A stretch of 64,000 bases of DNA. Source: Ignavibacteria bacterium (lineage in GTDB: Bacteria > Bacteroidota > Ignavibacteria > Kapaibacteriales > UBA2268). The position numbers were made by a program, and so were the translations under genes. Shown piece by piece: positions 9,522 to 62,421 of this stretch. The stretch covers positions 814 to 64,813 of the forward strand of contig JAOADV010000004.1 of assembly GCA_026417135.1 (NCBI GenBank). Reading direction: 5' to 3'. Numbering within the stretch: the first letter of the stretch is position 1; every line of letters starts with the position of its first letter. The notes under the pieces are model-generated. The model was not told the DNA's origin and did no database searches. It was given only the letters and a program-made list of their open reading frames with translations.

Positions 9522-12500
9522 TTACTTTAACCAAATGAACTTTACGGAAGTGAAACTGGTTTGGCTTTCGGCTGTAACGAAATATATGCCTTCGGGAATT
9601 TGTTCAAATGGTAAATCAATTTTGTATTCTCTTGCTTCTTTTATATCTATCGAAAATTCAGCGAATTGAATTCCGTAAACATTATAAATTCTAAACTTGT
9701 GGTTGCCTAACTCGTACGGATAGAACTTAAGATAAACTTTTTGCTCGTTTGCGTTTATAATCACTGAATAGAATGGGTTTAAGCCCGGCTCGAACAATCT
9801 TAATCCTCCGCTGCTACAAACATTAAGCAAAGTAAATTTGCCCTTTGTTTCTTTAAAGTTTACCAAACCCTTAGCTGTTTTTGTGTTTTCGATGATAATA
9901 TCTGTTGTAGTATTGTTACCCAACTTGGCTCGAAACTTTAATTTTGCAATTGCCGAATCGCTTGCTATTGGTTTAATTGGCAAACCAGTAAGCAAGATTT
10001 TTGTTTCGCCATCTTTAACTATTCCTTTAGGAGTATCGCCAATTGGTTCCATCAAAGTGTAGTTAAATCGAATTTCTGTCGATATAGATTGATGAAAGTC
10101 TGTTACATTGTTCGGCATTTTTAAATATAAAGGAAGAATAAATTCTTCGCCAGTATTTGCAGAAACTTCGGCGACTACGATTTCAGCAGAGGAGGGTAAA
10201 ATAGTGAACTTTCCGTCAACTTCAGTAAAATATACGAAGCCATCAATCGAGCCAGAGGAATTGATATCCAATGTGGTCGAAAGAGTTGCGCTATTTAACA
10301 CTTCGAAACTAATTACAATGAGTGTTCTTGTAGTTGGAGAAAAGGGAATATTATCTAAAAGTAATGAATTCGTTCCTAATGTAACAATTACATTAGGGTT
10401 GGTTCCGACAAATTTTAAAATATTTTGGTCGTAATTAATCCTTGTTCGTACCCTTGTGGTTCCCGACTGTTCAAGGTTTACTGGATTTCGAACTAAGATG
10501 GGAATATTGATTATCTCGCCAACAAGCCCTTTGTGTTCGTCGATAAAAAGTTCTGCACGCGAGGCAATAGGATTGCTTGTAAATAAAATAGAGTCGAGGA
10601 AATTGCAAGGTTCACCAGTAAGTTTGAGAAAAGCATTCAACCCCCCAGATTTTTCGGGCAAATACCGTATGTCGATTTTCAGAGTACCGCCAGCCGATAG
10701 ATTCCAAGGTAATGCTGGTCCAAGTATTGTCAACTGCTTGTCCGAGAAGTTCGCAGAAGTAATTGTCAAAGCTCTATTGCTTGTGTTTCTGAGAATAATA
10801 CTCGTATCTTTTGTATTACCTACTATTCCAAAAATTGTTATGGGTGCTTTGTCTATTTTTGGACTGTGAACATTTCCAGTTAAAGAGACCCTCTTTTGTT
10901 CATTGCAATAATCGTCGCTTATGCTAAGATTAGATGTAAAGGTACCTTCGGTAGGCGATTGCAAGGCTATTTCTAATGTTTCAGATGCATTTGGTGCTAA
11001 TGTAATAGAAGAAGAAGGAACAGTAAAAGGAGACGGTAGGCTGAGATTTAGTGTGATTTGAACATTTCCAGTGTTTTGAATCGTTAAATTCATTTTCTTA
11101 ACTTCATTAGGACAGATAACCCCAAAATCAAGGTTCGATAAGTTCGATGAGAATGTTCTGTCGGCAACAAAGCAAGTTAAAGGAATTGATAAAGTAGGAT
11201 GATTTTTTGCATTACTTGTGATTACTAAATTTGCGGAAATATTGCCCTTTGTCGAAGCATTCACTCGGAGATTTAGTACGTATTGGGATTCTGGTGCTAT
11301 CTTCACCGTCCCTGGATTAGAAGGTATAAACGAAAAGTCCGTTGCATTTGGTCCGGTGATTTGGAAATTTGTTATTTCGAGTTCCAAGGCTCCAGTATTT
11401 TTAATTACAATTGCTGTGTCGTAAAATCTTTTTTTGCAATCCAAATTTGGGAAAGAAATGGAGTTGTAGGTGCTAATTTCTGGAAATCCGCTGCCACTTC
11501 CGAATATTTTAGATTCGAAACGCCCCTTTTGAGTATCGAAATACAAAGTGCTTTGCCGAAAAGATGGGTCGCTTGGTGTAAAAGCAACATTCATTTCCAA
11601 ACAAGAGAAGGGAGCAAGATATAAGTTAGTAGTTCCACCGAGCAAGCGGAAATCGCCTTGGTCCCCTCCGCTTATTCGGACGGAATAAATGGTTAATGGT
11701 TCATACCAATTGTTACAGAATAGTATTTTTTGCTGTAAAGTTTTTGTCTGCCCGACAACTCCAGAGCCACAATCTACATCTAATGGATAGACCCAACCAG
11801 AATTTATTACAAACTCGTTACCATCGCAAGCAGAGGTTGTCAAGTTGAACTTGTCAGTATGATAAAGCGAATCATTATGTGGAGTGAATTTTATCTTAAT
11901 CGTCCTCGAAGAATCCTTTTCCAATTTAAAAGGTGGAGGGGTGCCACCCCAGTCGGTAACTTCAACATTGTTGAATTGTGAAGTAACTCCGGGAGAATTT
12001 ACATTTACAAAATTGTTTTTTGCAACAATATTAATTGTTTTTTCGAATGGTTGGTTGTAGGGGCGATTTAGCACGTAAATTGTTTTATCGTTGGAATGGA
12101 TTGCAGGTAGAAATCGCGATGGGACCTTGTACGAGAAGCTATCGGCAAGATTAGAAGGTTTGTACACAATATTTCCAAGCCCACCAGAGCAGTCCGAAAT
12201 AAAACGAAGTCGGCAAGGTGCTGGGGGACCCAAAGTTCCTATTGTGGTTAAAATGGATGAATAGAGATTATTAAGTTCTTCTTCGCTTGGTACAGACTTA
12301 AAAGCTTCGCCGTGTGGAGTTCCCCCGCAAATGGCGCTTAATTCGGGAGGAACTGGGAAGCCCAGAGTAATTGCGTATATTGTAACATTATATTTCCTTG
12401 CCGAATCCAAAATCTGACTAACCCAGACACTGGTACGACTTGGTGGGGGATTTTGACGACCATTGTGTTCTCCATCTGTTAAGAAGATTACAACTGGCTT

Positions 12501-57231: not shown

Positions 57232-59815
57232 AAAGGATAAGGTAGAAATTCAATATAGAAGAAAGAGAAAGAGCTCTTTCCAAGAACCACAAACTCAAAA
57301 TGATTCTGCGGAAGAGCTTCGCAAACAAATAGAAGAAAAATATTTTAATCGATTGAAGATTATTTCAATTTTAGTTTTGATTTTTTCATTCTTTGCTGTT
57401 TTATCAATTTTATCTTACTCTCCAAAAGATGAGTTCATTTATTCCTTTTCTTTTAAGGATGTTCTGGGTTTAATAACTGGCGATGAATCGGCTATTCAAA
57501 AAGCGAAATCCGTGTCTAATTTACTAGGTCCTTTTGGTGCGGTTGTGGCAAATTTTTTTATCAAAGCTACTATTGGTTACTTTTCTGTAATTTTCCCTAT
57601 TCTTGCAATTCTTTGGTCGTTAAAGATTATTCTTACTAAGTCGTTCAGTGGACCTTTGGCAAAAAGGACACTCTTTGCGGTCATTGGTTTGGTAGCAGTT
57701 GCCTCATTTTTAGAAAGCTTAAACTTGCTTTTTGCTTTGAAAATTCCTTATTTCTGGATTGGTTCTTTGGGTTATTCTATTTCTAATGTTTTATCGAACA
57801 TCTTTGGTAATCTTGGAGCTCTTTTAATACCAATTTTTACCATATTTTTTGCTATCATATTTACCATTGAAGTAAAGATAGAAAATTTTTTTCTTGCTTG
57901 CAACGATGGATTAAAAAAAATTCTTGGAAAGTTAAGGGAACTGAGGGTCAAGAGACAAAACGAAAATATCGAGAAAGAGACTCAAGCGAAAGGAAATTTA
58001 AGTGAATCAATTCCAGCATTGGATGAAGATATCGAAACTGGCCGCATATTAATCCAAAATATTAGCAAGAATGAAAATGGAAGTGAGTTCATAGACAAGC
58101 CTGATTCGACTAATTCTATTATTCGAAAAGACTTTTCAAGCGAAAATTTAGAAAAAGAAAACTACATTGCACCATTGGTGGAAAGAGAAAATCGTTCCGA
58201 CGATATTGAACAAGACTTGGAAAGTAATGAGAATGATAGGAAGCTTGTAGTAATAGTCGAACAAGAAGAAGAAGATGTCGTCGATGGGAAAAAATCAGCT
58301 TTTAGCCCTTTGTCGACTATTACCCTTGATGAAAAAATAAATTACACACCACCACCAATTGATTTACTTATCGACGATGAAAGCAAGTTTCAAATAAACG
58401 AGGAGGAGTTAAAACAAAATGCTCGAACCTTACAAGAAAAGCTCGAAACTTTTAAAATTTACATCGAAAATTTAACGGTAACTCCCGGACCCGTGGTTAC
58501 GTTATTTGAATTTGTTCCAGCACCAGGAATTAAAATTAGTCGAATTCAAAGTCTTGCCGATGATATTGCTTTAGGATTGAAAGCAAAGGGAATAAGAATT
58601 ATCGCACCTGTGCCCGGTAAAGGGACGGTCGGAATAGAAATGCCAAACAGAAAGCCATTGGTTGTTAGATTTGGAAATTGTTTGAAAAATGCGCGAATAC
58701 CTCCTAACTTTAAGTTACCGATAATTCTCGGGAAAACAATTTCGGGCGAAGTGTATGTGGACGACCTTACAAAGATGCCCCACCTTTTGATTGCAGGGGC
58801 CACAGGCTCTGGCAAAAGTGTTGGCATAAATACAATTATCGTATCCTTGATATATAAAATGTCGCCGCAAAATTTGAAGTTTGTTATCATCGACCCCAAA
58901 AAGGTTGAACTTTCGCAGTATCAACAACTTTTGTATCATTACCTTGCAGTTTCTACTGAAATCGAGGATGCGATTATTACTGAACCACACGATGCTGTGC
59001 ATATTCTTAAATCTCTTGTGGCGGAAATGCAAATAAGATATGATATTCTTGCATCAGTTAATCAAAAGAACATCGCGGAATATAATAAAAAGGTCAAGGA
59101 TGGTGTTTTCAAAAATGAGACCGAATTCGAGCATCGACCTTTACCGTACATAATTGTAGTAATTGATGAATTAGCCGATTTGATGCTAACGGCTGGAAAA
59201 GAAATTGAAACTTTGATAATACGACTTGCGCAGCTTGCTCGAGCAGTTGGAATACATTTGGTTGTAGCAACTCAAAGACCTTCGGTTGATATCATTACTG
59301 GGTTGATAAAAGCAAATTTCCCGGCAAGGATTGCTTACCTTGTTGCTTCGCGGGTGGATTCGCGAACTATAATAGATACAATTGGTGCGGAACAACTTCT
59401 TGGTAGTGGCGATATGCTTTTTCTTCCTAATGGAAGTCCCACTCCGATTAGATTACAAAATGCATTTCTGACTACCGAAGAAATCGAAAGAATTTGCGAT
59501 TACATCGGCAACCAGAAAGGTTTTTCTAAGCCTTACTATTTGCCAGCAATTGACGATGGAAAAGGTGCAAAGGAGCTGGTTCGTGAAGGTTTCGACCCAC
59601 TTTTTGCCGAAGCTGCTAGGCTAATCGTTCGATATCAGCAAGCTTCCGTTTCGATGTTACAAAGACGGCTTAAAGTTGGCTACAATCGTGCTGGTCGGAT
59701 TATGGATGAGTTGGAAATCGCTGGTATTGTTGGTCCATTCGATGGAAGCAAAGGTCGAACAATTAAAATTAAAACAGAAGAAGAGTTAAACGATATGCTA
59801 AGTAAGTTCGAGTAA
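57221..59815 (+). CDS. ftsK: DNA translocase FtsK/SpoIIIE
   Basis: N-terminal 4-5 TM helices, a long acidic/low-complexity linker, and the motor domain with Walker A LLIAGATGSGKSVGIN. The C-terminal gamma winged-helix domain follows. Start chosen at MASEKDK (57221), overlapping the ComB-like stop by 11 nt; the ORF-track start is 57173. Confidence 0.9.
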   Translation: MASEKDKVEIQYRRKRKSSFQEPQTQNDSAEELRKQIEEKYFNRLKIISILVLIFSFFAVLSILSYSPKDEFIYSFSFKDVLGLITGDESAIQKAKSVSNLLGPFGAVVANFFIKATIGYFSVIFPILAILWSLKIILTKSFSGPLAKRTLFAVIGLVAVASFLESLNLLFALKIPYFWIGSLGYSISNVLSNIFGNLGALLIPIFTIFFAIIFTIEVKIENFFLACNDGLKKILGKLRELRVKRQNENIEKETQAKGNLSESIPALDEDIETGRILIQNISKNENGSEFIDKPDSTNSIIRKDFSSENLEKENYIAPLVERENRSDDIEQDLESNENDRKLVVIVEQEEEDVVDGKKSAFSPLSTITLDEKINYTPPPIDLLIDDESKFQINEEELKQNARTLQEKLETFKIYIENLTVTPGPVVTLFEFVPAPGIKISRIQSLADDIALGLKAKGIRIIAPVPGKGTVGIEMPNRKPLVVRFGNCLKNARIPPNFKLPIILGKTISGEVYVDDLTKMPHLLIAGATGSGKSVGINTIIVSLIYKMSPQNLKFVIIDPKKVELSQYQQLLYHYLAVSTEIEDAIITEPHDAVHILKSLVAEMQIRYDILASVNQKNIAEYNKKVKDGVFKNETEFEHRPLPYIIVVIDELADLMLTAGKEIETLIIRLAQLARAVGIHLVVATQRPSVDIITGLIKANFPARIAYLVASRVDSRTIIDTIGAEQLLGSGDMLFLPNGSPTPIRLQNAFLTTEEIERICDYIGNQKGFSKPYYLPAIDDGKGAKELVREGFDPLFAEAARLIVRYQQASVSMLQRRLKVGYNRAGRIMDELEIAGIVGPFDGSKGRTIKIKTEEELNDMLSKFE

Positions 59816-59879
59816 GAAATAATTGAATTTTATTAATTCGATAAATTCGTAAGCTACTTTAATAAAATTTTTTCGAATA

Positions 59880-60848
59880 TTACCTAAATTTAACAAATTG
59901 GAGCAGATTTCTCCAAATAATAGGATATTTACCACCAAGAGGACCAATTTTCTTCCAATCGCCAAGAACTTCTAACTCTCTTAAAATTCTTAAAATGTCT
60001 GTTATATCTCTTTCAACATTGGTAGTTTGACTTGCGAGTTTCTCTTTCAAAATTTTATCACATAGAACCTTCTTAAGGCTTTTAATATTTTCGAAATAGT
60101 TGTAGTCATCGTTAATTTCTTGAATAATTCCAACAATGTCGATATAGTTCCCTTGGATGAGAAATATTTTTCGGATAAATTCTTTAATCTTATCATCATC
60201 TTTTTCTGCAATTTCTAAGAACTCTTTGCCCAGTTCAGAAATTTCGTAGGAATTTAAATCGAAGAGCTTTAAATCTCGTAATAATAATTTGATATTGATT
60301 AAGTTAGATTTTTTTGCTGATTTCCATTTTCTAATTTTGGTAATTGTATGCCAAATTGTTTCATCAATATATTCTTTTTTGGGTGAATTTTGAAGAGCTT
60401 GGTAAATGTTTTTTAAAATAATATAGATTTCCTTATATTTTAAATCTCTGTAGTAAGCATAACCTCTTTGAATTTTTTCTGTAGTTATTAATAGCTCGGC
60501 TTGTGGTTTTGGTTCTCGATGTATTGAAACTCTGTTAGGTTCAACACAAATTATTCAAATGAAATTTGTCCATAACCATTTTTCCATTAATTCTAGTTCT
60601 TTTCTGGGTAAGGCTAAGTAAGATTTATCTGAATGCCTACAAAAAGCAATAGCTTGTCCCAATCCAGTCAAGTACTCTCTTCGATTAAGGTTGCTTGCCT
60701 TACATTCGATTTGAGCCAAAGTGCCATTTAAGTATTTAACTTGAATGTCGGGCATAGGGAAGTGATAAGCGAATCTTGTTACAATTTCGACATCGGACTT
60801 TTGTTTGAACCAATTAGAAACTAATTGCACAACCTCGTTATGTGTCAT
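59880..60848 (-). pseudogene. putative Type II restriction endonuclease (PD-(D/E)xK fold) interrupted by an in-frame TGA at 60555-60557
   Basis: A 97-aa ORF (60555-60848) contains the PD…ExK motif FPMPDIQVKYLNGTLAQIECKAS. The same frame continues past a single TGA for another 224 sense codons down to a TAA at 59880-59882. That downstream segment has no ATG, GTG or TTG near its 5' end, which is why it is absent from the ORF track. Sampled lines are ~25% GC against ~40% for the neighbours. Confidence 0.5.
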
Positions 60849-61758
60849 TTTGGTTTTTTAAAAATTAGAACATAGTCGTGGTTACAGATAAAATAATTAA
60901 ACCTTAGGGAGCGATATTTATTCAAGTTGATTTTGCCTTGCCGTGAACTTGCAAAACGAGTAATCTTGATGACTTTTGAATAATATTCAAAACCGACCTT
61001 TAAACCAACTTGCGTTGCGTAAAAATCTAATGGTATTGTTTTACCTCCTTTTTTAAAGTCCTCGCCAATTAAAACACAGAAAAATTTTCCTTTTTTAAGA
61101 ACTGTGAAAACTCCGATGAAAACTTTCTCTAACCCTTCGAGAAAACCATCAAGTGTTTTTTCGTTGGAAAGGTCTCCATCGACGAAGCCATATTCTTCAC
61201 CATATTTGACAAGTTCCCAATATGGTGGATGTGCAAAACAAAAATCAAAACTTTCTTTTTCTAAACCAAGTTCGAGCAGTTTTGTTGAGTTCCCAAGAAT
61301 AACTCGTTGTTGTTTAAGCCAAAAAAGTAATGAATCATCGTCAAATCCCAATGTTTCTTGTTGCAAATTTAATTTAGCAACTTCGAGTATTTTAGGGTTA
61401 ATTTCGACACCGACACCTCTTCGTTTCACTGTGCAGCAACTATCAAAGTGGTTCCCGAACCACAAAATGGGTCCAAAATCAAATCGCCTTCTTTCGAAAA
61501 GCGAAGCAGACATTGGCGTGGTATTTCAATTGGGGAATTGCCGTGGACGGTATATTTAGTCCAATTGTATGGGTCGCGTTCTGGGGTATCCCATATTGTA
61601 AAAAATTGAATGTCTAAGTTTTGTTCGTATTCTTTCCATTTTGTAGGGTCTAAGTCGTTTACTTCGCCATTTTCCGTTTTTTTCGATATTGCGTTTGGTT
61701 TTAAAAGTTTATATTTACTTAGGTTAAATAATTCGTCCATAACTTTTGCAAAATACAA
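60845..61758 (-). pseudogene. N6A/N4C-type DNA amino-methyltransferase disrupted by a -1 frameshift near 61426-61432
   Basis: The 110-aa ORF ends …HGNSPIEIPRQCLLRFSKEGDLILDPFCGSGTTLIVAAQ* (motifs X and I). The overlapping 222-aa ORF in the -1 frame continues …KRRGVGVEINPKILEVAKLNL (motifs II-III), then ILGNSTKLLELGLEKESFDFCFAHPPYW (motif IV), then …NHDYVLIFKK. Restoring one nucleotide after the CAG (Gln) codon joins them into AAQ-x-KRRGVGVEIN. Its stop overlaps the nuclease gene start as ATGA. Confidence 0.6.
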
Positions 61759-61800: not shown

Positions 61801-62421
61801 TTATTTCCCCGATATATCTAACAAAATTTTATTTAAAAAGGTTTTTCTATGCAATGGACTGGGCTGGTATTTCAATATTTTTTCGATGTGCATTTTTGTC
61901 GCATAACCTTTATGCCTGTCGAAACCATAAATTGGATACAGTTTATGGGCAACTTCGCTCATCCAATTATCCCGCTCAACTTTTGCAACTATCGATGCAG
62001 CAGCGATAGAAAATGATTTTGTATCACCATCGACAATAGTGGAAAATTCATAAGGACCTTCGAAACGGTTTCCATCGATTAAAACATAAGGAGCGTAATC
62101 AGCAAGTTGTTCAAGGGCTTTGTTCATAGCTAAGATAGTAGCTTTCAAAATGTTGATTTCGTCTATTTGATATGCTGGAACAAAGTAAGTTGAAAAAGCC
62201 AGACAAGTTGAGATGATTTTTTCGTAAATTTTTGCACGAACCTTTGGAGATATGGTTTTGGAATCGAAAACTTCGTAGTCTGGGACGAAATTTAGAGGGA
62301 AAATCACAGCGGAAGCGAATACTGGACCAGCAAGAGAACCCCGCCCAGCTTCGTCGACCCCAGCAACGAGCTTTCCAATTTCCCAAAATTTTTTTTCAAT
62401 ATCGAAATTAGGTCGTTTCAA
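61801..62421 (-). CDS. rnhB: ribonuclease HII
   Basis: VAGVDEAGRGSLAGPVFASAVIF is the RNase HII active-site motif. 206 aa. Confidence 0.9.
   Translation of the reverse strand: MKRPNFDIEKKFWEIGKLVAGVDEAGRGSLAGPVFASAVIFPLNFVPDYEVFDSKTISPKVRAKIYEKIISTCLAFSTYFVPAYQIDEINILKATILAMNKALEQLADYAPYVLIDGNRFEGPYEFSTIVDGDTKSFSIAAASIVAKVERDNWMSEVAHKLYPIYGFDRHKGYATKMHIEKILKYQPSPLHRKTFLNKILLDISGK

Follow-up and report, generated by a model that had tools for sequence, protein, structure and literature searches.

The 64-kb window analysed here (the whole 64,000-nt stretch of an Ignavibacteria metagenome-assembled genome [MAG] contig) carries on its minus strand a cassette of two genes, a DNA methyltransferase gene (M) followed by that of a putative nuclease (R), and each of the two reading frames is interrupted once (Table 1). 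Both ORFs from which the first-pass annotation had built a methyltransferase are present in the ORF listing, at 61426..61758 (110 aa from a TTG) and 60845..61513 (222 aa). The first is more likely to start at ATG 61740, giving 104 aa, than at TTG 61758, and the initial 28 aa of the second are an out-of-frame overlap, with homology starting at GTG 61429 and leaving 194 aa. Exact-sequence matches at NCBI have the same boundaries: MCX7879719.1 is the 104-aa ORF from ATG 61740 and MCX7879718.1 (P0011) is the 194-aa second half from GTG 61429, and together with MCX7879717.1 they are recorded as three separate CDSs of the same 145,738-bp MAG contig. P0011 is 99% identical to the repaired methyltransferase described below and is annotated “MAG: DNA methyltransferase [Ignavibacteria bacterium]”. 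The first ORF ends ...LDPFCGSGTTLIVAAQ-TGA, and the second frame reads (V)KRRGVGVEINPKILEVAKLNL ... FDFCFAHPPYW ... NHDYVLIFKKPK-TGA.

Table 1. Features of the methyltransferase-nuclease cassette, in window coordinates.
Feature	Coordinates	Strand	Description or basis
M N-terminal fragment	61426..61740	minus	104 aa + TGA 61428-61426; N-terminal region, motif X, motif I
Motif I (AdoMet-binding), F92-C-G-S-G-T-T98	61447..61467	minus	sequence
M frameshift site	61424..61431	minus	coding strand CAG TGA AA
M C-terminal fragment	60845..61429	minus	194 aa from GTG; motifs II-III, IV-VIII
Motif IV HPPY (H171-Y174 of repaired M)	61220..61231	minus	sequence
ATGA, M stop overlapping nuclease start	60845..60848	minus	sequence
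Nuclease N-terminal 97 codons + premature stop	60555..60848	minus	PD34...E48-C-K50; identical to MCX7879717.1
Premature TGA at invariant Gly98 codon	60555..60557	minus	codon comparison
Nuclease remainder, codons 99-322 + stop	59880..60554	minus	last core strands + helical DNA-recognition domain

The first-pass annotation had read the two ORFs as pieces of one methyltransferase resembling PF01555 halves, and had proposed a conceptual repair of the frame followed by a Pfam search. Joined through a single inserted residue, the two halves give a 298-aa protein (repaired M) that matched PF01555 with 98.2 bits (cut-off 26.7), well above what chance would produce, and each fragment alone also scored above the cut-off, the first ORF over profile positions 118-200 (E = 1.4e-12, 48.5 bits) and the second over positions 2-108 (E = 4.1e-8, 33.9 bits). 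A search with repaired M returned 230 proteins at E ≤ 1e-5, the best of them at E = 5.7e-154 and 76% identity; among the 120 matches listed of these 230, most were 270-300 aa long and covered 91-100% of repaired M. The alternative of two unrelated ORFs was checked by alignment, and intact homologues run through both ORFs and across the break. Homology thus identifies 61740-61426 and 61429-60845 as the halves of a single predicted amino-methyltransferase of ~298 aa, as had been proposed.

Comparison with homologues at the protein and codon levels located the lesion and agreed with the -1 frameshift claimed earlier, which is a one-base deletion. Where the window reads ...TTLIVAAQ* / (V)KRRGVGVEI, homologues read ...TTLVVAAHLKRK.IGIEI; over a slightly longer span, GSGTTLVVAAH-L-KRK.IGIEINP in homologues is set against GSGTTLIVAAQ-stop, followed by KRRGVGVEINP, in the window. 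The corresponding codons are GCA CAT TTA AAA AGA in relatives (H-L-K) and GCA CAG TGA AAC GA in the window, with one base missing between the codons of Gln104 and Lys106 (...LIVAAQ/(L)KRRGVGVEI). This alignment confines the deletion to about 5 bases, 61427-61431. In the AlphaFold2 model of the homologue P0001, the break falls between helix 97-104 and strand 108-113.

The ATGA overlap between M and the nuclease gene was confirmed, as was the earlier claim that the nuclease gene is itself broken. Its frame, from 60848 to 59880, spans 322 codons and is interrupted once, by TGA at codon 98; no ATG, GTG or TTG follows the premature TGA in that frame before 60050 (~165 codons). Intact homologues are 315-335 aa long, and Gly98, P33-D34 and E48-C49-K50 (a PD-(D/E)xK signature) are invariant in 20 aligned nuclease sequences. 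The Gly98 codon of relatives is GGT or GGA, so that the lesion is most simply explained by a change of GGA to TGA. Reading TGA as glycine (genetic code 25), tempting at Gly98, was rejected, since TGA is the stop codon of 9 of the 50 other long ORFs in the window and also ends M at its family-conserved C-terminus.

Sequence annotation of the nuclease was uninformative: nothing significant was found for the family in Pfam, NCBIfam or PADLOC (the sole Pfam match was sub-threshold, at E > 0.01), its profile had no match below E = 0.9 in the PDB, and only fold comparison gave information. The AlphaFold2 model of the nuclease homologue P0121 (pLDDT 90.8) matched restriction enzymes including PaqCI, a Type IIS enzyme in which the endonuclease domain is N-terminal and the recognition domain C-terminal (PMC10201449; PDB 8em1). 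The modelled homologue has a PaqCI-like layout, an N-terminal PD-(D/E)xK domain followed by a C-terminal recognition domain, as well as similarity in fold; a product truncated at codon 98 would lack both the last core strands (98-111 in the model) and the entire recognition domain. The family is rare: a search of 1.84 billion proteins gave 169 representatives at E ≤ 1e-3. More probable than the split-enzyme reading of M considered below is that the partner gene defines a rare family, as yet unannotated, of compact (~320 aa) PaqCI-like restriction enzymes whose partners are HPPY methyltransferases. This PaqCI-fold family, unnamed in protein-family libraries, is the most useful by-product of the analysis, and intact members such as P0121-P0123 may be worth considering as sources of new Type IIS-like specificities.

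In the window the cassette lies between rnhB and ftsK. Related M-R pairs were found at six further loci, overlapping in five (L001-L005) as in the window and adjacent in the sixth (L006), in differing chromosomal contexts; in Kapaibacteriota and in another Ignavibacteria MAG the pair sits between a fusA paralogue and rpsL. The ATGA overlap recurs in L001 and L003, and L005 has TAATG. A co-oriented neighbouring M and R conserved across genomes, the arrangement by which a Type II restriction-modification (R-M) system is recognized, is therefore present. GC content is 27-30% over the nuclease half of the cassette (59750-60750), compared with 36% for the window and 34-37% for the M gene. The differing neighbours and the low GC of the nuclease are consistent with a mobile M-R cassette. 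An imperfect 30-nt inverted repeat (59851-59880 and 61814-61843, 73% complementary) brackets the cassette. Flanking repeats were considered as insertion scars and set aside, this weak, AT-rich and imperfect repeat being all that was found and probably due to chance. Of the remaining ~60 kb, 57.5 kb is taken up by the 50 other long ORFs (~96% coding density), none of them visibly broken; the overlapping ORF pairs checked elsewhere in the window are separate full-length genes. Neither tRNA genes nor Rfam families above the gathering score were found in the whole 64-kb window.

Different partners occur beside more distant HPPY methyltransferases (29-37% identity to M; L007-L085). These include a D12/Dam-class methyltransferase upstream (15 loci), an unannotated 213-aa ORF (18 loci) or ~385-aa ORF (10 loci) downstream, and a RiboL-PSP HEPN protein (4 loci). 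The 213-aa and 385-aa ORFs were examined as possible kin of the nuclease, and neither they nor the other partners are related to the window nuclease family.

The state of the two genes varies among the closer relatives. In L001, L003 and L005 both M and R are intact. The M DNA of L002 and L004 is identical to that of L001, where M adjoins an intact R, while their R genes differ from that of L001 at 19 positions in 972 nt, including a one-base deletion, and the flanks are only ~0.3% divergent. The comparison covers positions 6001-7865 of L001 and L002 (also L003 and L004), and the deletion splits R into 230 and 110 aa. These changes in R between Kapaibacteriota strains look like R-specific decay or recombination. 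In L006, from a Bathyarchaeia MAG (CAZLCE010000005.1, 3260-5124), both genes are disrupted: M has a frame change near residues 229-235, and in R a short QSQVLV segment is duplicated and the frame shifts near residues 116-141. The three states fit the expected order of decay, nuclease first and methyltransferase later. Separately, the L002 assembly (GCA_017880035.1) has EF-Tu split into 267 and 135 aa at 11057-12269, where L001 has one 403-aa ORF; this reflects either indel errors in that assembly or a real tuf lesion, and calls for caution over frameshifts in these MAGs.

The motifs of repaired M are arranged as the first-pass annotation had stated, with motif I before motif IV, and three comparisons agree on this. 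The PF01555 halves are swapped, profile positions 118-220 matching residues 32-123 of repaired M and positions 2-108 its C-terminal part. The best solved relative by sequence, the beta-class enzyme TTHA0409 (PDB 2zie, E = 3.2e-21), likewise aligns as two swapped stretches. The AlphaFold2 model of P0001 (76% identical, pLDDT 90.7) has the canonical strand order without an extra domain. Strands 108-113 and 146-149 of that model are separated by just two helices (116-133 and 136-143), and the last core strand, 288-295, is also the end of the protein, leaving no C-terminal recognition domain. Motif I (F92) and HPPY (H171) are 79 residues apart with no recognition domain inserted, and repaired M does not have the beta order, in which the motif IV region and a recognition domain precede motifs X and I. 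From sequence and model together, the M family has the beta-class PF01555 layout circularly permuted, so that the motifs again stand in the standard order. Repaired M matches two of the Type II methyltransferase models in PADLOC colinearly, PDLC03351 at E = 1.2e-47 and PDLC03376 at E = 6.3e-33.

The histidine noted earlier in motif IV was also confirmed: the (D/S)PP(Y/F) expected of PF01555 is absent and HPPY stands in its place. Damage was considered as its cause and rejected, because none of the residues H171, P172, P173 and Y174 varies among 83 close relatives or among 75 of wider diversity, which marks HPPY as a family signature rather than a lesion; F92 and G96 are invariant among the 83 as well. 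Searched as a peptide pattern (HPPY[WG]...) in species-representative genomes, the motif was found in at least 532 confirmed relatives from Bacteria and Archaea. A literature search for “HPPY” with methyltransferase returned only irrelevant Hippo-pathway papers. This canonical-order HPPY branch of PF01555 is widespread in both domains and barely discussed in the literature searched.

Taken together, the locus is probably a recently inactivated Type II R-M cassette of PaqCI-like type, in which M is a topology-E (see below) HPPY member of the PF01555 superfamily. The earlier suggestion of a dying R-M system holds in that both genes carry lesions, a deletion in M and a premature stop in the nuclease. 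The cassette would be the remnant of a two-gene Type II system, M then R, translationally overlapped, in an Ignavibacteria MAG. Judged from its sequence, intact M would be an AdoMet-dependent DNA amino-methyltransferase of ~298 aa acting on N6-adenine or N4-cytosine, and intact R a ~322-aa protein with an N-terminal PD-(D/E)xK nuclease and a C-terminal helical recognition domain in the PaqCI layout. R would have been inactivated by the GGA-to-TGA nonsense change at Gly98, and M by loss of a base between the helix after motif I and the motif II strand, which would sever the AdoMet-binding start from the rest of the fold. R was presumably lost before M, because losing M while R was active would be lethal. 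We infer that no methylation or cleavage activity remains, and the organism is probably without the activity of this R-M system. Deviations at conserved columns are few (3 of 98 in M and 2 of 54 in R, within the family range), which suggests that the lesions, if real, are recent. The locus, with relatives in which the pair is intact, R is broken or both are broken, would serve as a clear case from nature of the sequence in which R-M systems are expected to decay. For annotation, MCX7879719.1, MCX7879718.1 and MCX7879717.1 should probably be corrected to fragments of two pseudogenes.

It is possible, if rather unlikely, that the missing base is an artefact of MAG assembly and that the organism has an intact methyltransferase and perhaps an intact nuclease. 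The first-pass annotation had argued for a real mutation from the position of the break outside a homopolymer. The position is correct, no homopolymer of more than 2-3 bases being present at 61427-61431, and a real lesion is likely but unproven, the source being a MAG contig. One lesion per gene with no surplus substitutions at conserved columns is also how an error would look, and the split EF-Tu gene of L002 indicates that errors do occur in such data. Against this, the neighbouring nuclease has an independent lesion of a different kind, a substitution at an invariant Gly, and no other broken gene was seen among 50 long ORFs; the chance that two random lesions share one 1.9-kb span of 64 kb is ~0.03. 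Further copies of the strain were sought by exact matching of two proteins, P0011 and the GTP cyclohydrolase I encoded nearby, neither of which had a contig on record, and by a gapped DNA pattern across the break, which had no match in JGI metagenome contigs; the HPPY-pattern search returned 80 representative-genome loci, none of them from the window genome.

Split cytosine-5 methyltransferases exist, both natural and engineered, and M might similarly work in two pieces, with termination at TGA coupled to reinitiation at GTG, the 104-aa and 194-aa products assembling into an orphan enzyme that stays active after loss of the nuclease. The stop and start do overlap (GTG 61429-61427 and TGA 61428-61426, as GTGA), the NCBI pipeline chose this very GTG as the start of the second half, the conserved residues of M are kept, and in the P0001 model the cut falls on a predicted surface loop joining a helix to a strand. 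However, none of more than 200 homologues is split at the same point, GTGA arises automatically from a one-base deletion after the CAG codon, and selection to keep M is not evident once R is dead. We therefore regard a two-piece enzyme as improbable. Regulation of methyltransferase expression by a programmed ribosomal frameshift or a phase-variable switch was rejected as highly improbable: all that speaks for it is that a product as long as the homologues would result from a -1 shift at the stop, whereas no slippery heptamer (X XXY YYZ) precedes the M stop, no simple-sequence or tandem repeat lies at the site, and the shift is not conserved, every homologue read here being continuous at the break.

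The inactivated R-M cassette can be set beside known systems through each of its genes. Compared with PaqCI (8em1), the nuclease shares the predicted domain layout at only 14% identity, with no sequence-level match to any solved structure; the intact form would have 322 aa against 491 aa, and the window copy is cut at codon 98. M resembles beta-class PF01555 enzymes (TTHA0409, 2zie; M.MboIIA, 1g60; CcrM, 6pbd) in both halves and has FxGxG and xPPY(W), but the halves are reversed, His replaces Asp/Ser in motif IV, and no recognition domain lies between the halves. With the gamma class (M.TaqI; M.NruI/M.Sbo13I) it shares the linear order X-I-II-III-IV-...-VIII, and the description of M as “gamma-like” in the first-pass annotation stands to that extent; it does not extend to NPPY or to a C-terminal recognition domain, both of which M lacks, or to the sequence, whose affinity is to a permuted PF01555 and not to gamma profiles. 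Non-NPPY motifs with gamma order do occur, in the M.NruI subgroup (PMC2890505).

The closest description is that of topology E, defined by detection with a beta/alpha-type profile, an AdoMet motif preceding the catalytic motif by <100 aa and no recognition-domain insert, with M1.BcnI and M4.BstF5I as members (10.1101/2023.12.13.571470, 2025 preprint). For the beta/alpha profile group the same source lists (D/S/H)-P-P-(Y/F), a pattern that allows HPPY. M has the B/D-type profile match (PF01555), the AdoMet motif first, the 79-residue spacing and no insert, and so fits the topology E class by profile, motif order and spacing, being set beside M1.BcnI and M4.BstF5I by description; it differs in that the window copy is frameshifted. 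It is ordinary for a broken methyltransferase gene to lie next to a broken nuclease gene, and the motif order of M, though uncommon, is, like HPPY, already represented among catalogued Type II methyltransferases.
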